Positions 35,860 through 45,002 of a stretch of DNA of 64,000 bases are shown in pieces; positions within the stretch are counted from its first letter, which is position 1, and every line of letters starts with the position of its first letter. A program made the position numbers and the translations under genes. This DNA comes from Candidatus Poribacteria bacterium. Its GTDB lineage: Bacteria; Poribacteria; WGA-4E; WGA-3G. The notes under the pieces were generated by a model. It was not told where the DNA came from. It made no database searches and saw nothing but the letters and a program-made list of their open reading frames with translations. The stretch covers positions 1,344,001 to 1,408,000 of the forward strand of contig OZ244048.1 in assembly GCA_965215265.1 (NCBI GenBank), in the 5' to 3' direction.

Positions 35860-36290
35860 ATTTTTATATATCTCCGTACCGTCAAAGGTTATGCATTTGC
35901 TGGTTCGTGTGTAAATCTCGTTTTTTCGTATATCTTGGTAAAAAATTGGCCCTGCTTGCAGGGTGAATTCTTGTCCATCAACGCTACTTGCCAACTGCTA
36001 TTTACAAACCTTTACAAAACTCGCCAGAGCCGCTTTATGCTACGCCTAAGGAATCTCCGACGAGATTTTCACGGAAATTAACATAACATAGAGCCGTATC
36101 GGGCTTAACTATACAAAAACGTCAAAACACCAGACGGCTCAGACGAGAAAGGAATTGTCCCTGCAAGCAGGGATGAATTCTTCTACAAAACATAGAGCGT
36201 CATTGGGTGCCTGTAGACGAAAAAGCGAGATTTGTGCTTGCGTGTTCATTAAATCCATCGGTGACGTGCTGCCGTAGACGAAAGCCTGTT
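35860..36290. repeat. Repeat family cluster overlapping the fmt 3' end
   Basis: Multiple arms plus two CCCTGC-AA-GCAGGG-type hairpin inserts. Confidence 0.85.
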
Positions 36291-37204
36291 TGCAGTTGAT
36301 AACCGTTAATAAAATCGCGTGCATCCATAGCTTTTTTAGTGGCTGGTTGAAGTAGCAAAAGTTGAAGTGTGCCGTTCCCTGTTGCTATGAGCAGTTCTTG
36401 TTCAGTGCCAATGTGGAGCGTTCCTGGCGGCAGACCTAATGGCTGGGGTTTCGGCAGACAGCGTAGAATCTTCACCCGCAAATTCTGTGGAAAAAAGGTA
36501 TAAGCGCCGGGCCAAATGATGGTGCCGCGCACAAGATTGTGAATCTCCGTTGCCGCCTGCTGCCAGTTAATACGGCCACTCTCTTTTGTCAAACGTGGTG
36601 CGTATGTTGCAGCGGCGTGGTTCTGTGGAGATGCCGGAGGTGGCCGGTCGCTTGGCATTTTACGAAGCAGGCGTACCAATTGCTTAGCACCCAGGGCCGC
36701 TAAGGTATGCGTCAGCGTTGCAGCAGTCTCCTGGCTCCGAATCGGGATGTGCTCTTGGTAGATAATATCGCCAGTATCCTCACCGGCATCCAATAACATC
36801 AAAGTGATGCCGGTCTCCGTTTCGCCGTTAATCAACGTCCATTGAATGGGAGCAGCGCCTCGATATTTCGGCAGGAGTGATGGATGCAAGTTAATGGTGC
36901 CACACGGTGGAATATCCAACACTACCTGCGGAAGGAGTTGACCGAAGGCTGCAACGACGATGTTATCTGGTGCCAACCGTTCCAAGGTTTTGACAAAATC
37001 GGTGCGTCTCACCTTATCAGGTTGATAAACCGGCAGATTATGTCGCGCGGCCTCCACTTTCACGGGCGGCGGTGTGATTCGCTTTCCGCGGCCGCTGGGC
37101 CTGTCGGGTTGTGTGACAACTCCAATAAGTTCAAATTTGTGAGCAATGAGTGCTTGCAATGATGGTATAGCGAATTCACTGGTGCCCATAAATAGAATTT
37201 TCAT
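36200..37204 (-). CDS. fmt: Methionyl-tRNA formyltransferase
   Basis: FMGT.EF, VTQPDRP.GRG, NLHPSLLPKYRGAAPIQ; the last ~25 aa are repeat-derived. Confidence 0.96.
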   Translation of the reverse strand: MKILFMGTSEFAIPSLQALIAHKFELIGVVTQPDRPSGRGKRITPPPVKVEAARHNLPVYQPDKVRRTDFVKTLERLAPDNIVVAAFGQLLPQVVLDIPPCGTINLHPSLLPKYRGAAPIQWTLINGETETGITLMLLDAGEDTGDIIYQEHIPIRSQETAATLTHTLAALGAKQLVRLLRKMPSDRPPPASPQNHAAATYAPRLTKESGRINWQQAATEIHNLVRGTIIWPGAYTFFPQNLRVKILRCLPKPQPLGLPPGTLHIGTEQELLIATGNGTLQLLLLQPATKKAMDARDFINGYQLQTGFRLRQHVTDGFNEHASTNLAFSSTGTQ

Positions 37205-37229
37205 ATAGTGCAGCCCCCTAACGCCTGAT

Positions 37230-37892
37230 CTAAAATCGGATTTGAATGAGCTGGAGGGTTAGACCGCCCAGCGGTTCGCTTCTAGACGTGTTCACTGTGT
37301 GCCTTAGACGGTTTTGTAAGGCTGGATAAAATCCGGTGTTTATTGAAGTTGCACGCGGATACGGCGAATGCCCATCCAGCAGGCGAGCGACGACACCTTC
37401 TGTTGGTTCTTCGTCTTCAATTGGAGGCGGTGGTTCCGGCTTTTGAATACGTGGTGTTGCAGTATCTACCGAGCGTGTGCGCCACCAATCCCATACGCCG
37501 ATGAAAATTGACAACGAAACGGCACCGATGCCAATAATACGATAATCCTGCGGTGTTAACTCTGGCGCGAATTGCTTTTCACTATACATTTTTATCCCGC
37601 GCACCGCGACGTAACTGTGAATCGAGGTAAACGGAAGGGCGCTTAAGGTGATAATCTCAAACCGGCGTAGTGCATTCTCCTGATATCCTTCGACAGGAGC
37701 CGGTGCTTGCTCCTCTGGAGGCATCGGCCGTTTTTGCGCGCTTGTATACGACACGAACCCAAAAATAAAAGCGGCGCTAAGTATGAATACCTGCTTTTTG
37801 TATACTGCAGCACAGCAACGCCTGATGTTTTGATAAAACTGTGTGAAATCTCGTCGCCCGCCTACCCAAATCCTCTCTCTGTTTAGATTCAT
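37230..37892 (-). CDS. Hypothetical membrane/secreted protein (start uncertain, lies within repeat)
   Basis: Signal-like FILSAAFIFGFVSYTSA, LRRFEII..SALPF and TM segments; the only in-frame ATGs upstream lie inside the repeat. Confidence 0.6.
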   Translation of the reverse strand: MNLNRERIWVGGRRDFTQFYQNIRRCCAAVYKKQVFILSAAFIFGFVSYTSAQKRPMPPEEQAPAPVEGYQENALRRFEIITLSALPFTSIHSYVAVRGIKMYSEKQFAPELTPQDYRIIGIGAVSLSIFIGVWDWWRTRSVDTATPRIQKPEPPPPIEDEEPTEGVVARLLDGHSPYPRATSINTGFYPALQNRLRHTVNTSRSEPLGGLTLQLIQIRF

Positions 37893-38380
37893 TTTTTTGT
37901 ATATTTCAGTACCATCGGTGCTTAGGTTGTGTAAAATCAGATGTAAATCTCGCCAGAGCCTGCTTATGTTTATATCCATTTTTTATATCTCTCCGTACCA
38001 TCAACGCTTATGTTTTGATGGTGCGTTTTTTCGTATCTCTCCGTACCTAAAAAGTTTTTATTGTGTTAAATCCGATATAAATCTCGTCTTTTTGTATACT
38101 AGAGCCCTACAACGGCTGATGTATTGTCAATAACTGTGTAAATCTCGTTTTTTTTGTATGCAGGTGCCCGATGCCAGTTGCTGCAATTTAAATCTTGTGT
38201 ACATCTCGTCGCCCGCCCACCCAAATCCTTCTATGCTATGATTCGTAACATAAGCAGGCTCTGACGAGGTTTGTAAAGCATTTATCAAAACATCAGGCTT
38301 GATTGGGCTCCTGTAGACGAAAAGGCTCCTGTATACAAAAGAACATAACAACCGCCTTTGTTGTGCTGCACTATACGAAA
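37795..38380. repeat. Large repeat family cluster
   Basis: About 7 tandem forward arms followed by reverse arms ending at the lspA stop. Confidence 0.88.
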
Positions 38381-38862
38381 TTCCGGTTACGGAGTAGGTA
38401 AAGGACCAGCATACCTGCTCCGATACAGACAGAAACGTCAGCAAAGTTAAAGGTTGGCCAAAACAGTCTGCGGCTTTCTATGCCGAACTGCAGAAAATCA
38501 ATGACTTCTCCGATGCGTATCCGGTCGATGAAATTTCCAACCGCGCCGCCAAGTAGAAAGCCGAGGGCAATTTGCATCCAACGGCTCTGCCGAAATTGGA
38601 TTGAATATACCAGAATGAATCCTAAAGCAACAAGGGTGATCAAGATGAGCAAGGAGCGTTGCCCGGCTAATACCCCAAAAGCCGCGCCACTGTTCTTATC
38701 ATGGCGAAGATTGAAGAAACCGGGGATAACCGGTATAACTTCAGTGATATACGTAATGTGTTTTTCAACAAGCCACTTGCTCAGCCAATCTACGACGAAT
38801 ACCGGAATCGCTATTCCTATAAGCGTGAGTGAAACTTTCCAATTTTTCGTATTTTTTAGCAC
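38371..38862 (-). CDS. lspA: Lipoprotein signal peptidase II
   Basis: DWLSK, NSGAAFG, GGAVGNFIDR, VIDF, FNFAD. Confidence 0.96.
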   Translation of the reverse strand: MLKNTKNWKVSLTLIGIAIPVFVVDWLSKWLVEKHITYITEVIPVIPGFFNLRHDKNSGAAFGVLAGQRSLLILITLVALGFILVYSIQFRQSRWMQIALGFLLGGAVGNFIDRIRIGEVIDFLQFGIESRRLFWPTFNFADVSVCIGAGMLVLYLLRNRNFV

Positions 38863-38864
38863 GT

Positions 38865-39120
38865 TTTCGTATATCTCCGTTTTCTTGCATCTTTCAGCCC
38901 CATCAAGGGTTATATTTTTGATAATCCTTTACAAATCTCGTCGGAGGTTTTCGTATATCTCCGTACCGTCAACGCTTATGTCATGAATACTCGTGTGTTG
39001 GCAGGATAGGTATTCTTTTTCACTCCTTTTAGGAGTGAAAAGATTACGAAGTTGAGGGTGGCGAGATTTGTGCTAAGGTTATCATAAAATCAATCAGTGT
39101 TGTGCTTCCGTAGACGAAGC
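38865..39120. repeat. Repeat family cluster with nested hairpin element
   Basis: Arms plus a ggcaggataggtattc-tttcactcc-tttt-aggagtgaaa insert. Confidence 0.85.
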
Positions 39121-41787
39121 TTTGAGAGATTCCCATTCCGCTTTGGCGTTTTCTGCAGCAGTTGCTAGACATCCCCAGTTTGTCTGAAAGATGCTGTCTG
39201 GCAGGCTTGCAGCTGCTGGGACAACAATCAACTCGGCGGCATCTTCCAAAGCGCCATTTTTAGTGAGAGATTCAGAGAGCTGCTTATAAAACCGTTCAGC
39301 CAAGAAAGGTGTCAACGGTGCGAAACGTTGAAGCAGCAAAGTTCCTATTATGGATAGCGTCCGTCGTGCTGCATAGGAGGTTTCATGACTGCCCATAGGG
39401 ACGAATTGAAGATAAAACCGGAGATCTATGTCACAGAAATCAAAAAGCAGTTCCCACATTTTGTGAAAATTCCGATTCCGATAGGCTGCTTCTACCTCTT
39501 TCAAACGTGCCTTCGTTGCATCCAGGGCGAGTTCATCACGCTGGTTCTGCCCTATCTCGTCCGGTACGTTTGGTGCTTCGAATTCAGAAGTCTCCCCTGC
39601 CTTGTCTGTATCCTGACAAAGTGTGGAAACCTGCTCTAATAACTGCTGCAACCGTTCATATTTGGACCAGTACTTTTTGGCAAGCGTCCCAAGTTGCCTG
39701 CGTGTTACGTTCGGTGCAATTGCCAGGAGCCGACAGACATCAGCAGGATATTGTGCAATAAACGCATCTTGAATTTCAAAAGAGCGCTCTTTTTTTCCGT
39801 CTAAAATTGGCAGTGCTTGGAGGATAAGCTGCTTAAAGGGTTGGCTCTCTTTAATCGGTCGACTTCGGCTCAGTGCTGCGGAGATAACACTCACCTCCGA
39901 CAACCATTTTGAAAGGCCGGCTTGCGGGCCGAATATGACGCTAACAGGTCCCCCCAGGGGTTTCTTAAAATCGGAATTGTGAATCACCTGAAGCAGATTG
40001 CCGAAATGCGTATCAATCAATGTGGCTTCCTTCCGGAATTCCTTTGAATTGCACTTGGGACAGAAGGTATCGGTCGGTAAGAGTTCTTCTACACTCAAGC
40101 GAAACCAATATTCAGGCCCGCGGCGGATAGAGTTCCGGATAGCCAATAGTATATTTTTATTCGTAAGGGGTTCATCACACCCATCACAGAACAAAATAGG
40201 CAGCGGCATGCCCCACTGCTGCTGCGCGGAAACCTGCAAGTCAGTGAAATTGGCTGTGGTTTTTTGGACATCGACGAGAGCCTCTGGATGCGTGGGACAG
40301 TAATTCTCCCAATATTCTGGTGCGTTAATAAGTTCCGCTGTTGGCTGATTCTCGGATAGTGAGAAGACCCATTTTGAACAGGGGCGAAAAACGGCTAGCG
40401 TCTGGCACCGCTGGCAGTGGAGCCTCGGTCCTTCCGGAGCTGAGCTCTCATTATTAGTACCTGGACGAAATTTTAAGAGATAGCCGAACTGCTCTAACTC
40501 AGGAACGATAAATTTTTCAGCATCATACAGATTCAATCCACAGAGCGTGTCGCCTTCTTCGGTGAACTTGCCGGTCTCATCAAAAACAGACGTAGAACTT
40601 CTTTTTAAGAGCTGCGCAATATAGTAACTTAACGGGTTGTGCGCAGCATTTAGATGAATAACCCCGGCAAATCGTTCGTTTTGATGCGCATCGCCGCCAT
40701 ACCGATTCTCTTTCAGCATCCGGGCTGCTTCCTCGACGACGTTTTCGGGAATTGGAATAATCTTTAAAATTTTTGATGTAAAAAGTGGATGGGATACCGT
40801 GCATTTTGTGAGTTCAGAACTGCGTAGTTGCCTTAAGACTTCAAGAGTCTGGCCGGTTTTCGCCAAATGGTTTTGAAAAATCTGCAGCTGCGGTTCGGCA
40901 AAAAGCAGGTATTCACTTTCAAACCGAGTGAGGTAATAGGTAGCATTTTCACTAATTCCGAGTTCTGTCGTGCCTGCTATTTCCCAAATATGAGCGAACT
41001 CAAGACAAAAGAAGACATCGATGCCAAATTCCTCGAAACCGGTGCTGAAAGGAAATTTCACAAACGCAGGCAATGTGTCTGTTACACGATGTTCAGTTTT
41101 GCCAGTCTCAAGCGGTGCAGAGCACTTGGGACACCAAGCGCCAAGATGTGGCAGGTCTTGTAAATAGTGATACTCACGGAGCCGGCTGAGCAGTGGAATC
41201 AACTTTGACTCCTGCCGTGCGTCATGGTTTTTCAGTGCCAACTCCCAAGCTGCAAAACAGCCGAGTTGTTTTAATTTTTCTTGATTCGCTTCTAATTGCT
41301 TTATATAGAGTGTGTAGCACTGCTTCCGGAAGCGAAACATATCCAGCGGCGATTTAGAATTGGCTGCAGCTTCCGTTGCGATTTTATCTTCAATATAGGC
41401 AGGATATTTCTCCCAAGCAGGTATATATATCACTTCGCGTGCTTGCAGCATTTCTGCCTTAAGGAATATGTCTTGACAAATTTTTCTACAAAGCGTCCGG
41501 TGGTTGAGTGCATGAGTGGGAGCCGGCATTTCTCGAATAACATAAGTGACCGTATCGTTCTCTTGCGGGGTCTCATCAACTGGCGGTGTGTGTGCGGCAA
41601 TATCTACTGATGGGGAGGCTTTAGCACGTAGCACCGTCACCGATTGCAAAGGGTAAACTCCGGCGTTATCCCAGAGATTTAAAATTGATTTTTCTTCATG
41701 TCGACTGAGATATTCTGCAGACCTCGATGGAATTTTAGCGTTCCCGTTTTTACGTTGTACACTTTTGGTAGAAGCTCTTTTTTTCAT
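39094..41787 (-). CDS. Isoleucyl-tRNA synthetase-like protein with degenerate catalytic motifs
   Basis: IleRS-like order of motifs (WCPKC..PL, VKFP, HPL, G.FTEE, WG.PLP, CPKC..KE, YPAD..RL, AP..PF.AE) and the ileS-lspA position, but no HIGH or KMSKS. Confidence 0.8.
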   Translation of the reverse strand: MKKRASTKSVQRKNGNAKIPSRSAEYLSRHEEKSILNLWDNAGVYPLQSVTVLRAKASPSVDIAAHTPPVDETPQENDTVTYVIREMPAPTHALNHRTLCRKICQDIFLKAEMLQAREVIYIPAWEKYPAYIEDKIATEAAANSKSPLDMFRFRKQCYTLYIKQLEANQEKLKQLGCFAAWELALKNHDARQESKLIPLLSRLREYHYLQDLPHLGAWCPKCSAPLETGKTEHRVTDTLPAFVKFPFSTGFEEFGIDVFFCLEFAHIWEIAGTTELGISENATYYLTRFESEYLLFAEPQLQIFQNHLAKTGQTLEVLRQLRSSELTKCTVSHPLFTSKILKIIPIPENVVEEAARMLKENRYGGDAHQNERFAGVIHLNAAHNPLSYYIAQLLKRSSTSVFDETGKFTEEGDTLCGLNLYDAEKFIVPELEQFGYLLKFRPGTNNESSAPEGPRLHCQRCQTLAVFRPCSKWVFSLSENQPTAELINAPEYWENYCPTHPEALVDVQKTTANFTDLQVSAQQQWGMPLPILFCDGCDEPLTNKNILLAIRNSIRRGPEYWFRLSVEELLPTDTFCPKCNSKEFRKEATLIDTHFGNLLQVIHNSDFKKPLGGPVSVIFGPQAGLSKWLSEVSVISAALSRSRPIKESQPFKQLILQALPILDGKKERSFEIQDAFIAQYPADVCRLLAIAPNVTRRQLGTLAKKYWSKYERLQQLLEQVSTLCQDTDKAGETSEFEAPNVPDEIGQNQRDELALDATKARLKEVEAAYRNRNFHKMWELLFDFCDIDLRFYLQFVPMGSHETSYAARRTLSIIGTLLLQRFAPLTPFLAERFYKQLSESLTKNGALEDAAELIVVPAAASLPDSIFQTNWGCLATAAENAKAEWESLKASSTEAQH

Positions 41788-41813
41788 ACACCTATTATCC
41801 TTAGATTTATCCG

Positions 41814-42065
41814 CTAAAGCATTCTTATCAAAAGGGATAGCAGCATTATGAGTATCCAGGGTGAAAAGTCAATCCCAAGATTCCGGGACACCGGGTCAAG
41901 CGCACGACGAATAGGATTTAGAACAGGATCCACGATAGAATTCGTCAAGGAATAAATTTGCCTGACAGTGGCGTTCCGAGTACCGAAGACAAAGTACGAA
42001 AGAATAACATTGGCCAAAACAACAAAAATATAAATTTCGAGTAGGTGTTTAAGTATATTAGCGAT
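41814..42065 (-). CDS. yggT: YggT family membrane protein (start codon unclear)
   Basis: LLEIYIFVVLANVILSYF...DPVLNPIRR...GIDFSP; similarity extends upstream of the TTG at 42017. Confidence 0.82.
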   Translation of the reverse strand: MANILKHLLEIYIFVVLANVILSYFVFGTRNATVRQIYSLTNSIVDPVLNPIRRALDPVSRNLGIDFSPWILIMLLSLLIRML

Positions 42066-42424
42066 TTTTTTGTATCCTTCAGTGCCATCAACGCTTATGA
42101 TTTTGATGGCTCGTGTATAAATCTCGTTTTTTTGTATATCTCCGTACCATCAACGTCTCTGTTTTGATGAGTCGTGTGTTGGCAGGATAGGTATCTTTCT
42201 CTGTCCATGAGAGAAGATAACCTTTTACCTGCCAATCTATAGATAAATCTCGCCAGAGCCTACTTAGGCATAGTCTTTTGAAGTCAAAGCATCAGAAGGC
42301 TCCGACGAGATTTGTAAAGTTATTAACATTGCAGCAGCCTTGTATCGGGCTCCTGTAGACGAAAGAACGAGATTTGTAAATGTTTTATCAAAACAAACGC
42401 TCTTATTGTGCTGCACTATACGAA
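42065..42424. repeat. Repeat family cluster with nested hairpin element
   Basis: Two forward and two reverse arms; insert at about 42179-42244. Confidence 0.88.
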
Positions 42425-43234
42425 TTATGTATTGCCAAGTTGTTTTGAACGTTCTGTAGCGGCAAGGATAGCTTCCGTAACGGTGGCACGTAATCGCCCT
42501 TTTTCGAGTGCATGGAGTCCAGCTGCGGTTGTTCCGCCGGGTGTCGTCACACGATTTTTAAGAACGGCTGGATGTTCATCCAGTTGGTCTAGCATCTGTG
42601 CGGTTCCTAAGACTGTATATGTTGCTAACTGTTGTGCAGCATTCCGGGGTAATCCGACCTGTACACCGGCATCTGCTAAAGCCTCTATAAAGAGTGCGAC
42701 GTAGGCGGGTCCGCTGCCGCTGACACCAGTTACAGCGTTGAGATGTTGTTCATCCATAACTAAAGTAGTGCCACAAGCGTTGAAGAGTTCCAAGGTTATC
42801 TGAATATGAGTTTCATCTGTGCAACTGCCTTTTGCGAGTACAGATACAGCGGAACGTGCGGCTGCGGCGATGTTCGGCATAACGCGAACGATAGGGGGCG
42901 TTGCTTCAAAGTAAGATTCAAGCGTTGCAGTTGAAACGCCAGCAGCGATACTAATTACCCATTGCGGTGATAAAAGGTTTTTCGCTACCTGAGGCAGAAT
43001 GTGTGGCACTGCTCCGGGCGGTACTGCACAGAGAATCGCGTCTGTGTTTTCGAGGAGTTCGGCGATATTTGATACGGCTTTCACATTCTGCTCCTCGACA
43101 AGTTGCGCGACAAGATTCTTATCAATATCCGTAACCCAAATCTGATTTTCAGGGAGCAGGGTGCCGGCGACATTTCTCACGATAACGCCGCCCATTTTTC
43201 CGATACCGATGACTCCCAATTTAAAGTTGTTCAT
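42425..43234 (-). CDS. proC: Pyrroline-5-carboxylate reductase
   Basis: IGIGKMG, ISIAAG, RVMPN, SGSGPAY, VTTPGGTT. Confidence 0.96.
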   Translation of the reverse strand: MNNFKLGVIGIGKMGGVIVRNVAGTLLPENQIWVTDIDKNLVAQLVEEQNVKAVSNIAELLENTDAILCAVPPGAVPHILPQVAKNLLSPQWVISIAAGVSTATLESYFEATPPIVRVMPNIAAAARSAVSVLAKGSCTDETHIQITLELFNACGTTLVMDEQHLNAVTGVSGSGPAYVALFIEALADAGVQVGLPRNAAQQLATYTVLGTAQMLDQLDEHPAVLKNRVTTPGGTTAAGLHALEKGRLRATVTEAILAATERSKQLGNT

Positions 43235-43239
43235 CTTTT

Positions 43240-43740
43240 TGTTTTTTTGTATATCTCCGTACCATCAACGCTTATGCTTTTGCTAACTCGTGTGTAAATC
43301 TCGTCGGAGATTCCTTAGGTTATGTCTTTAAAAATCTAAACATCAGAACCCTCCCAGTGGGTGGCAGGTGGCGGGGTTCGGTTATCTTTTCACTCCTTGC
43401 AGGAGTGAAAAAGAACCTATAGGTGGCAGGTAAAAGGTAATCTTATCTCTCCTGAAAGGAGAGATAAAGAATACCTATCCTGCCATACCTTATCCCCGCC
43501 ATCTATAGATAAAAGGTAATCTTCTCTCATGGACAGAGAAAGAATACCTATCCTGCCACTGGCGAGATTTGTAAAGTTATTAACATTGCAGCAGCCTTGT
43601 ATCGGGCTGAAATATACGAAAGAACGAGATTTTCACAGATTTTTACAAAACATAGAGCGTCATTGGGCACCTATAGGCGAAAGAACGAGATTTGTGCTAA
43701 GGTTTTCATTAAATCCGTCTTTGTTCTGCTGCACTATACT
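43240..43740. repeat. Repeat family cluster with triple nested hairpin element
   Basis: Arms flanking a ~210-bp insert (43350-43560). Confidence 0.88.
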
Positions 43741-44488
43741 AAAGAAAGATTGCCCGTCCGATTCTTACTAAGTTGGCGCCCTCTTCAATCGCTATTTCAA
43801 AGTCGTTTGTCATTCCCATAGAGAGGTATCGCATGATAACGTCAGGAAATTGCTGTGCTTCTATCTTCTCGGCGACGGTTCTCAACAAAGCGAAAGCCTT
43901 GCGATTTGTCGCTGGCGGAGCGTCTAACTGTCCGATTGTCATCAACCCAAGGATGCGCACGGCTGGATATCCTAAAGATTGTTCAATAAACCGGGGTACA
44001 TCTGCTGCATGTACACCATATTTACTTGCCTCACCGGTAGTATTTACCTGAATTAAAACATCTGTCTGCTGCCGGGGCGCTTCGGACCGACGTGCTATTT
44101 CTGCGAAAAGGCGCACACTGTCCACTGAATGAATCAGCGAAAACATCTGGAGTGCGGTTTTCACCTTATTGCGCTGTAAATGTCCGATAAGGTGCCAACG
44201 ACACGTTTTATCACCGACTGCATGGTACTTCTGTTGTGCTTCCTGCACCCGGTTTTCACCGATATTGGCAACCCCTGCAGCGATGGCTGTCTCGATCTCC
44301 ATGACGGAACGTCCTTTGGTGACTGCGACGAGCGCTATCGTATCAGGTGAGCGGCCGCTTCGTTCCGCGGCAGCTGCCAATCGTTCGTTCACTCTGGAAA
44401 GGTTTTCCGCAATTTTTTTTGCGTGCTCCGTGCAAGAAACCGGTTGTGTTGCTAAAATAGAATTGTTCGTATCTCTTAGTACCATCAA
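43739..44488 (-). CDS. yggS: PLP homeostasis protein (YggS/PROSC)
   Basis: LVAVTK, GENRVQE, WHLIGHLQRNK, HSVDS, LSMGMT.DFE.AIEEGA..VRIG. Confidence 0.96.
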   Translation of the reverse strand: MMVLRDTNNSILATQPVSCTEHAKKIAENLSRVNERLAAAAERSGRSPDTIALVAVTKGRSVMEIETAIAAGVANIGENRVQEAQQKYHAVGDKTCRWHLIGHLQRNKVKTALQMFSLIHSVDSVRLFAEIARRSEAPRQQTDVLIQVNTTGEASKYGVHAADVPRFIEQSLGYPAVRILGLMTIGQLDAPPATNRKAFALLRTVAEKIEAQQFPDVIMRYLSMGMTNDFEIAIEEGANLVRIGRAIFL

Positions 44489-44615
44489 GATTATGTATTG
44501 TTAATAACTGTATAAATCTCGTAGTAGGTTCCTTAGGTATACCTAAACGGCTCAGACGAGGTTTGTGCTAAGGTTTACATCACATCAGGCGGTGGCGTGC
44601 TGCCATAGACGAAAA
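44465..44615. repeat. Repeat family, single inverted arm pair
   Basis: ttcgtatctcttagtaccatc...aaatctcg...gacgaggtttgtgctaagg...gtgctgccatagacgaa. Confidence 0.85.
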
Positions 44616-44675
44616 ATTGGCGTCTCCTGTCCTCAGGGCACCCACCTTTCATCTATCACCTATTCTCCGTGGTGT

Positions 44676-45002
44676 CTATGCATTATCCTCGCTTGAAGGC
44701 TCAGTTGTTTCTGATGTCCACAACGTTTTTTGGATGTCATCTGGCGTTTGCTCATTGATAAGCCTTTGGCTGTTGAACGAAAACAGGATACCGATAACTG
44801 CCATGAGTACTGCCAAGCTAACGATACCTATGCCGACTGTCAGGGTATGTGTAGCTTCCGTGTAGATCTGTGTAACTTGAACTGCAGTTGTTGGTTCTGA
44901 TAAGGTTTTCTGATATTTTGCAGGATAGATGCCGCCCAGAACAATGAAAATGAGTCCTATGATACCTATAACTATTGAAAGAATTAGAAATAGAAACCTC
45001 AT
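44676..45002 (-). CDS. Hypothetical membrane protein (2 TM)
   Basis: Two hydrophobic helices; co-oriented with its neighbours. Confidence 0.65.
   Translation of the reverse strand: MRFLFLILSIVIGIIGLIFIVLGGIYPAKYQKTLSEPTTAVQVTQIYTEATHTLTVGIGIVSLAVLMAVIGILFSFNSQRLINEQTPDDIQKTLWTSETTEPSSEDNA

Follow-up and report, generated by a model that had tools for sequence, protein, structure and literature searches.

A pseudo-isoleucyl-tRNA synthetase at the ancestral ileS-lspA locus of Candidatus Poribacteria is under purifying selection

Why would a group of bacteria keep a full-length isoleucyl-tRNA synthetase (IleRS) gene, in the usual place for ileS, when the catalytic residues have gone from it? 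The question is raised by a gene in a stretch of 64,000 nt from Candidatus Poribacteria bacterium (GCA_965215265.1, contig OZ244048.1, positions 1,344,001-1,408,000), hereafter the window. At 39094..41787 on the minus strand, the window holds an open reading frame (ORF) of 897 aa with an ATG start and no internal stops, and directly downstream of it lies lspA, which encodes signal peptidase II (38371..38862, minus strand; Peptidase_A8, 138 bits; TIGR00077, 119 bits). The original prediction placed an uninterrupted IleRS-like ORF at the ileS-lspA locus, and the ORF list, the family scores and the adjoining lspA bear this out; motif alignment and structure further identify the product as a pseudo-IleRS. 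The E. coli K-12 ileS likewise lies upstream of lspA at its reference locus. We consider it very probable that the protein is dead as a catalyst of aminoacylation but functional. With less assurance, we favor the reading that it is an ancient pseudo-synthetase derived from type-1 IleRS (IleRS1) that does not aminoacylate and works by binding, likely at the face of the former active site.

Judged by its sequence matches, the window protein's homology to IleRS is far beyond chance. It matches the Pfam families tRNA-synt_1 (2.7e-12) and Anticodon_1 (1.8e-08), it matches the IleRS1 entry 8c9f of the PDB by sequence (1.5e-22), and it scores 144.6 bits (3.4e-42) against TIGR00392 (IleRS, EC 6.1.1.5), 477 bits short of the curated cut-off of 621.4. 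The profiles of mupirocin-resistant IleRS, NF000257 and NF000258 (MupA/MupB), gave 23.2 and 28.3 bits against a cut-off of 1900, and a protein-atlas look-up matched only generic class-I synthetase clusters. Structure prediction, proposed as a check on the original prediction, returned a full IleRS fold. The AlphaFold2 model (mean predicted local distance difference test score, pLDDT, 82.6; predicted template modelling score, pTM, 0.83) is disordered at residues 1-22 and 48-76. Its best Foldseek matches are full-length IleRS structures (E 1.6e-31 to 8c9f), and it aligns with S. aureus IleRS (1qu3_A) over 736 residues with Z 26.8 and a root-mean-square deviation of 11.8, which is high because domain orientation differs. 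The model has the class-Ia architecture, with a Rossmann fold split by connective peptides 1 and 2 (CP1 and CP2) and then a helical anticodon-binding domain.

Within this fold the catalytic signatures are eroded. Every degenerate string quoted in the original prediction was found, each at the expected place in a MAFFT alignment with E. coli K-12 IleS and relatives (motif positions in E. coli numbering, Ec; segment coordinates on the minus strand). In the N-terminal Rossmann half (residues 79-205; 41173..41553), HIGH (Ec 65-68) reads LNHR(T) and GWDCHG (Ec 94) reads AWEKYP, with the family motifs REMP, QDIFLK and PxWE in their stead. In the CP1, or editing-domain, fold (residues 206-445; 40453..41172), the editing T-rich peptide WTTTPWT (Ec 240) reads EFAHIWE and GTGAVH / D342 reads FAGVIH / PLSY, so that the equivalents of both the T-rich peptide and Asp342 are lost. 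The CP2/Zn-knuckle segment (residues 446-590; 40018..40452) carries DLQVSAQQ for DWCISRQR (Ec 461), alongside the family motifs QRQWGMPLPIL.CD.CDEPL, WFRLSVEELLP and FRKE. In the C-terminal Rossmann half (residues 591-695; 39703..40017), DVWFDSG (Ec 532) has become DTHF-GN, EGSDQHRGWF (Ec 561) has become FGPQAGLSKWL, and the KMSKS loop (Ec 602) is shortened. The predicted replacement of KMSKS by KKERS held in that the loop is degenerate and GKKERS falls there; the string itself is not conserved in relatives.

The two ends of the protein are also distinctive. It stops after the helical anticodon-binding domain (residues 696-860; 39208..39702; Pfam Anticodon_1), and it has no counterpart of the C-terminal Zn finger (two CxxC, E. 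coli C901-C924) found in type-1 IleRS, a point beyond the original prediction. The helical domain is set apart by its charge (family median net charge -7 vs -1 in true IleRS1) and by its substitution pattern, described below, whereas whole-protein isoelectric point does not set the family apart from true IleRS1 (median 6.38 vs 6.22). At the other end, residues 1-22 (41722..41787) form a disordered, Lys/Arg-rich tail (MKKR..KS..RK.GK; pLDDT <50) that the alignment shows in family f1 only; the charge of the first 30 residues is +8 in the window protein, +7 as the family median and +1 in the enzymes. Here and below, G000 is the window's own genome, a single contig of 4.83 Mb, and its relatives are coded G001 and so on, with taxonomic families f1-f9 and genera such as g8.

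The erosion is shared by the relatives. HIGH and KMSKS are missing from 17/17 aligned lineage representatives; the editing Asp is retained in g11, g13-15 and f5, and the T-rich peptide is gone everywhere except in G041, where it is partial. We compared 68 canonical IleRS1 sequences (HxGH + KxSKS, 860-1010 aa, plus E. coli) with 71 family members. Among the 130 columns that are at least 90% conserved in canonical IleRS1, the canonical residue is shared by at least 80% of the family at 37 and by less than 50% at 86. The lost columns comprise the entire PPYANG-HIGH stretch, G94/D96/H98/G99, W240-N250, G328/H333/D342, W462/C463/R466, V533/W534/S537/G538, E561/G562/Q565/R567/G568, K602/S604/K605/S606 and the C-terminal cysteines, together with R656/N657/T658/R660 and K732/D733, conserved class-Ia tRNA-side motifs of the helical domain. 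Retained columns are mainly W, G, P and Y and include P57, D76, W95, W569 and S465-x-Q-R-x-W-G-x-P473, and the D96 position is Glu in 80% of family members. Clear homology is combined with the loss of catalytic residues, as in a pseudoenzyme.

What the family has lost in canonical residues is accompanied by conservation of its own. There are 22 family-only conserved residues (among them E86, Q105, F108, L109, R191, R551, R556, A596, L598 and L599), 15 of which lie in the Rossmann/CP2 regions, and 58 columns are invariant across family members down to 22% identity. The four CxxC pairs expected from the original prediction persist, one in CP1 (C219/C222) and three in the CP2/Zn-knuckle segment (C458/C461, C534/C537 and C576/C579), and their eight cysteines are conserved at 97-100% in the family vs 31-60% in canonical IleRS1.

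If this protein does not charge tRNA, which one does? The gene for isoleucine charging is a different one and encodes a type-2 IleRS (IleRS2) with a GVHH signature, as was foreseen in the suggestion that aminoacylation had moved to another ileS. This second gene (G000:C1:2010651-2013158) lies outside the window as a 1052-aa ORF that scores 962.5 bits against TIGR00392, has GVHH in the HIGH position and retains KMSKS. Its closest PDB entries are P. megaterium IleRS2 (8c8w, 1034 bits), with IleRS1 entries at 334-353 bits. In the TIGR00392 search of G000 the window gene comes third, at 144.1 bits; the remaining hits fall within genes for other class-I synthetases. Because the window gene and the second ileS share one single contig, we reject the possibility that the latter is a contaminant.

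The same division is found in relatives. GVHH and KMSKS, with the string PPFANAPPGVHH, occur in 10/10 f1/f4 genomes checked, and in three f2/f3 genomes the true ileS is a longer variant, with GVHH in both that were read by eye and the KMSKS pattern unmatched. TIGR00392 is over the cut-off in 39/41 close relatives, the IleRS always being 1049-1194 aa and never of type-1 length, and the distant genomes G105, G044, G041 and G063 encode an IleRS of 1051-1095 aa (920-996 bits); in G139 the best TIGR00392 match is cut by a contig end. According to passages of Brkic et al. 2023 (PMC10485003), the G/AXHH signature is linked to mupirocin hyper-resistance in IleRS2 and is not tolerated in IleRS1.

The window gene itself descends from an ancestral bacterial type-1 ileS and is still at the usual place upstream of lspA. 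A profile built from 63 family members scores IleRS1 structures highest (8c9e, 278 bits; 1ffy, 260 bits), with an IleRS2 (8c9d) at 157 bits and T. thermophilus IleRS at 149 bits. The least diverged relative found, the copy in G041 from another class of the phylum, is a 943-aa ORF with 445.5 bits on TIGR00392; it retains a type-1 N-terminus and the C-terminal CxxC...CxxC finger and is missing HIGH and the KMSKS loop. In a maximum-likelihood tree of 70 rows (IQ-TREE quick search, LG+C20 PMSF, rooted on the genome's own IleRS2), 18 Poribacteria genome copies and five metagenome proteins form one clade (23/70 rows) with a support of 100 in the Shimodaira-Hasegawa-like approximate likelihood ratio test (SH-aLRT), nested among canonical IleRS1. 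Branching within this clade follows taxonomy (f1, then f3, f4, other orders and f8), and its exact sister group is unsure because of long branches and uneven composition in many rows. The ATP-handling motifs and editing residues were lost before the sampled Poribacteria diverged, and the C-terminal Zn domain was lost in this lineage.

We then asked how widely the gene is kept, and in what state. A protein sequence search with the window protein gave 219 matches at E <=0.001, the best 120 of which are 837-957 aa long, with 45-63% identity (bar the window's own 100% row) and 93-100% query coverage; the source names among these 120 are 'class I tRNA ligase family protein' or 'hypothetical protein', from Candidatus Poribacteria. 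Across the phylum, 135/151 sampled genomes match the 63-member profile at E <=1e-40. By family, leaving out G000, matches were found in 99/99 genomes of f1, 22/26 of f3 (g11 20/20, g14 1/1, g15 1/1, g8 0/4), 4/4 of f4, 5/5 of f5, 2/2 of f6, 1/1 of f7, 1/2 of f8, 0/10 of f2 and 0/1 of f9. The orthologs are not frameshifted. Nine rows were flagged as having stops inside (G001, G023, G030, G144, G054, G085, G095, G098 and G103), and 9/9 of these copies are uninterrupted ORFs of 771-906 aa that run from the family N-terminus to its C-terminus, with the stops beyond the ORF ends. Every copy examined is an intact ORF; the G150 match is cut by a contig end, and in G038 the first position of a circular contig falls within the match. 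In G037 (g10) and G029 (g8), both without the gene, proC directly adjoins lspA, and a tblastn search with seven family members found no gene remnant at the lspA loci of five gene-less genomes (best E 0.092).

The dead copy is under purifying selection across the phylum. The ratio of non-synonymous to synonymous substitution rates (dN/dS), obtained with our own script by the Nei-Gojobori method, was 0.256, 0.188, 0.201, 0.141, 0.195, 0.162 and 0.179 in seven within-genus pairs and so, between species, lies well away from the value near 1 that had been named as a point against the original prediction. The true IleRS2 gave 0.047-0.096 in five of the same genome pairs. dS across the dead-copy pairs was 0.39-1.64, with the high values saturated, and the three least saturated pairs give 0.18-0.20. 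The dead copy changes at two to three and a half times the rate of the enzyme, yet far below neutrality. When pooled by domain over six f1 pairs, dN/dS is lowest in the N-terminal Rossmann half (0.081), followed by CP2/Zn (0.102), CP1 (0.135) and the C-terminal Rossmann half (0.146); it is 0.25-0.29 in the N- and C-tails, highest in the anticodon-binding domain (0.340) and 0.168 for the whole protein.

We propose that the window protein, which on its sequence would be unable to adenylate isoleucine or charge tRNA, acts by binding and not by catalysis. By analogy with HisZ, a sensor or adaptor, the former active-site/CP face might bind a small ligand or a partner (a protein or an RNA 3' end), and the tRNA(Ile) anticodon would not be read. 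This sensor/adaptor mechanism is put forward tentatively, as a possibility well short of even, though ahead of each alternative weighed below. It is suggested because constraint is strongest in the remodelled Rossmann core and in two Zn-knuckle/CP modules, because the Zn knuckles are invariant, because the anticodon-binding domain is relaxed and acidified and the C-terminal Zn domain lost, and because part of the former isoleucine subsite survives (P57, W95 and W569, with D96 replaced by E). The pocket residues are those that we take to line it in the T. thermophilus structure.

Several observations weigh against this account. Only 2/5 of the presumed isoleucine-pocket positions are identical. 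In ordinary enzymes, too, the catalytic core is the most constrained part for reasons of packing, so the dN/dS pattern is no proof of a new binding site, and the basic N-tail cannot be the family's common mechanism because it is confined to f1. The gene has been cleanly lost in f2 (0/10) and in genus g8 (0/4), and its function is therefore dispensable in some lineages. Within the species the signal of constraint is weaker. Near-identical copies occur in contigs of three other studies, with no RNA run among the sequencing runs listed as containing the gene. One contig, of run X7, covers the gene from end to end, is free of indels and carries 15 ORF substitutions, 8 synonymous and 7 non-synonymous. 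Runs X6 and X9 add four further distinct non-synonymous changes, some at low depth, for a within-species total of 8 synonymous vs 11 non-synonymous distinct changes, which are small numbers. Finally, no IleRS above the TIGR00392 cut-off was found in two of the 41 close relatives, G008 (120 contigs, 99% complete) and G010 (210 contigs, 86% complete), though both carry the dead copy; these are metagenome-assembled genomes (MAGs), and the missing enzyme is probably an assembly gap.

How do other explanations fare? The original prediction proposed a non-catalytic role in tRNA or RNA binding or as a scaffold. The non-catalytic part agrees with a protein that is intact, selected and free of catalytic motifs; the tRNA-binding part is weakened because the anticodon-binding domain is the least constrained (dN/dS 0.34), and because R656/N657/T658/R660 and K732/D733 are lost and the C-terminal Zn domain, which in type-1 enzymes contacts the anticodon (S. 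aureus complex), is gone. A protein that docks tRNA(Ile) as IleRS does and sequesters, chaperones or senses it when uncharged, for which the HisRS-like domain of Gcn2 is a precedent in sensing, would fit the retention of the full class-Ia architecture, the Anticodon_1 match, the S-x-Q-R-x-W-G-x-P motif and the Lys/Arg-rich N-tail of f1. We regard it as unlikely, given these losses and the more acidic helical domain. An account that dispenses with function altogether, in which the gene is a relic whose frame stays open only because expression of the essential lspA depends on transcription or translation passing through it, draws on locus comparison, which shows the gene directly adjoining lspA or overlapping with it in several relatives, and on the same arrangement in an Armatimonadota genome. 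Such coupling requires an open frame, however, and not a conserved sequence; the dN/dS of 0.14-0.26, the 58 invariant columns and the confident fold speak of constraint on the protein, and gene-less lineages keep lspA right after proC. We hold this to be very improbable.

Two further alternatives would leave the protein a catalyst. In one, the remodelled cleft houses a new enzyme, either an ATP-independent aminoacyl-tRNA-dependent transferase, for which cyclodipeptide synthases are a precedent, or some other catalyst. An ATP-independent reaction would tolerate the loss of HIGH and KMSKS, and the core is the most constrained region and holds family-specific invariant polar residues (E86, Q105, R191, R551 and R556). 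However, the tRNA-side motifs are eroded, and the neighbors (yggS, proC, yggT, lspA and fmt) are housekeeping genes and do not form a biosynthetic cluster. SbzA, an IleRS copy turned to transfer chemistry according to parts of two papers (PMC12945691, PMC9437257), lends the idea support, but the first of these also indicates that SbzA retains weak aminoacylation, and the window protein has no motif that could sustain such an activity. We judge a new enzyme to be quite unlikely, and less likely than tRNA(Ile) binding. The other alternative, a very divergent yet working IleRS with relocated catalytic residues, has in its favor that IleRS2 tolerates a swapped G/AXHH signature, as passages of PMC10485003 describe; the same passages indicate that IleRS1 does not tolerate even the GXHH swap. 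Here both signatures and the KMSKS loop itself are gone, 86/130 conserved columns are lost, the score is 144.6 bits against a cut-off of 621.4, and a normal IleRS2 is present. Of all the explanations weighed here, we give this one the least credence, marginally below the relic. The reading of a binding pseudo-synthetase derived from IleRS1 is the one that we retain.

The surroundings of the gene are those of a housekeeping locus, with yggS, proC, yggT, lspA, an ORF without a Pfam match and fmt as neighbors and no biosynthetic cluster. The order proC-[gene]-lspA-ORF without a Pfam match is conserved in relatives, and in the window yggT lies between proC and the pseudo-ileS. On the minus strand, proC (pyrroline-5-carboxylate reductase, 42425..43234) forms the conserved upstream flank, a yggS-like gene for a pyridoxal phosphate-binding protein (Ala_racemase_N, 43739..44488) lies upstream of it as part of a conserved yggS-proC-yggT-ileS-lspA neighborhood, and a 249-aa ORF without a Pfam match (37230-37979) lies downstream of lspA; these were assigned from the ORF list and Pfam. 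Relatives have Pfam-less ORFs of 175-215 aa, matched by position, at the same place after lspA, even in genomes without the pseudo-ileS. The yggT-family gene, which encodes a small membrane protein (PF02325, 48.9 bits), is listed at 41814..42017 on the minus strand, and its stop is 26 nt upstream of the pseudo-ileS ATG. Its listed TTG start falls inside the conserved domain, and the open frame extends upstream (LKHLLEIYIFVVLANVILSY; 41814-42101, minus strand). Because this upstream frame has no ATG, GTG or TTG, the real start is probably further upstream, at another start codon.

When window positions 36000-45000 were compared with Rfam (E up to 1), no RNA family was detected, whether a leader, a T-box or any other. 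A promoter scan gave 4 sites vs 7.8 expected and is thus uninformative; one of the sites, TTGACT-16-CATAAT, is 58 nt upstream of the pseudo-ileS ATG. Terminator-like sites numbered 10 vs 4.6 expected. Two repeat families were observed. The genes lspA, yggT, proC and yggS and the 249-aa ORF each have, shortly ahead of the start codon, a dispersed repeat of ~35-40 nt in which GGAG stands ~10 nt from the ATG (copies at 37979-38017, 38947-38985, 42066-42104, 42128-42166, 43243-43281, 44463-44501 and others). The 21-nt core of this repeat has 11 copies in the window (<=3 mismatches) vs 0 expected, and a window search found no copy of the repeat upstream of the pseudo-ileS itself. A second family, of ~58 nt, lies at or just past the 3' ends of minus-strand genes (36225-36282, 38264-38321, 38344-38379, 39061-39118, 42367-42424, 43624-43742 and 44556-44613). 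The copy at 39061-39118 overlaps the 3' end of the pseudo-ileS by eight codons. At 39000-39096, contigs from other runs stack to a summed depth of 130-650, as would be expected of a multi-copy element.

Does the same thing happen outside Poribacteria? We searched 1.84 billion representative proteins with the G041 copy and obtained 12,687 matches, 1,252 of them at E <=1e-30. Alignment of the best 150 of the 12,687 revealed several full-length IleRS1-like proteins outside the Poribacteria clade without HIGH and KMSKS, with named sources in Armatimonadota (P0241, P0155) and a Bacillota MAG (P0129); one member of a cluster inside the Poribacteria-type clade is labelled Deltaproteobacteria. In an Armatimonadota MAG (contig L064, 4001-8891), the genes that come after the degenerate P0241 (497 bits on TIGR00392, under the cut-off) are one for a DksA/TraR-type zinc finger, lspA and lgt, and the same MAG encodes a separate 1113-aa IleRS (918 bits). 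In four related genomes the only IleRS is a normal IleRS1 of 940-961 aa. On the basis of this case, the pseudo-synthetase seems to have had at least one further, independent origin at this locus. The search also matched many full-length IleRS1-like metagenome proteins (P0125, P0132, P0141, P0151, P0167, P0168 and others) with HxGT, HxGQ or HxGS for HxGH, in which KMSKS, GWDxHG and the T-rich peptide are kept.

These observations prompt a broader conjecture, which we rate as doubtful. Conversion of a displaced type-1 IleRS into a stable pseudo-synthetase may recur when an IleRS2 with G/AXHH takes over, and the remodelled cleft with its two Zn knuckles may be a new functional site. If so, the cleft would be a sensor of isoleucine or another small ligand, or would hold an ATP-independent activity that uses aminoacyl-tRNA, tying amino-acid status to another process. 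Some of the degenerate IleRS1-like proteins of other phyla are annotated as 'isoleucine--tRNA ligase'. If these or the Poribacteria copies were taken for synthetases, predictions of metabolism and of resistance would go astray. Pseudoenzymes derived from synthetases are known; what is notable here is the age of the family, its phylum-wide retention, the ancestral ileS-lspA locus and the pairing with a GVHH-type IleRS2. With more than 130 genomes and identities down to 22%, the family offers a natural, deeply sampled system for seeing what the IleRS scaffold does after catalysis is lost, and it bears on how IleRS2 replaces IleRS1.

IleRS is described in parts of Chaliotis et al. 2017 (PMC5388404) as among the most stable synthetases with regard to paralogs, HXGH is reported for all 158 sampled IleRS1 in passages of Brkic et al. 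(PMC10485003), and a table in a review (PMC9437257) lists only the mupirocin-resistant IleRS2 and SbzA for IleRS. Our search of a library of open-access and bioRxiv papers found none on a catalytically dead bacterial IleRS.

A comparison with known systems places the window protein closest to bacterial type-1 IleRS (E. coli; S. aureus 1FFY/1QU2/1QU3; P. megaterium 8C9E), with which it shares fold and domain order (Z 25-27 over ~740 residues) and, as in E. coli, the locus upstream of lspA, and within which its family nests. It differs from these enzymes in the absence of HIGH, the KMSKS loop, the T-rich peptide/Asp and the C-terminal Zn domain. HisZ, in which the amino-acid subsite outlasted catalysis, differs from the window protein in being a class II protein with a partner, HisG, and in having no anticodon-binding domain. 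A HisRS paralog that is the regulatory subunit of ATP phosphoribosyltransferase (listed in PMC9437257), HisZ is nonetheless our working analogy, as a synthetase paralog kept for a binding or regulatory role. The LeuRS-I of Sulfolobaceae (Weitzel et al. 2020, as summarised in part of PMC9437257) is similar in being a duplicated class-Ia synthetase that is important to the cell, apparently not via normal charging; it is archaeal and still makes leucyl-adenylate, whereas the Poribacteria protein is bacterial and without ATP motifs. SbzA, from the SB-203207/8 cluster, is, like the window protein, an extra IleRS copy with a non-housekeeping function, but on the account in parts of PMC12945691 it belongs to a biosynthetic cluster, uses Ile-tRNA and aminoacylates weakly, whereas the window gene sits among housekeeping genes and has no catalytic motif. 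The Bacilli with both ileS1 and ileS2 resemble Poribacteria in having a type-1 and a type-2 gene in one genome; according to excerpts of Zanki et al. (bioRxiv 10.1101/2022.02.09.479832), Bacillus species with a genomic ileS2 depart from the rule of a single ileS, and the pair take complementary roles. In Poribacteria, by contrast, the type-1 copy is catalytically dead, which leaves the type-2 enzyme as the sole plausible synthetase.

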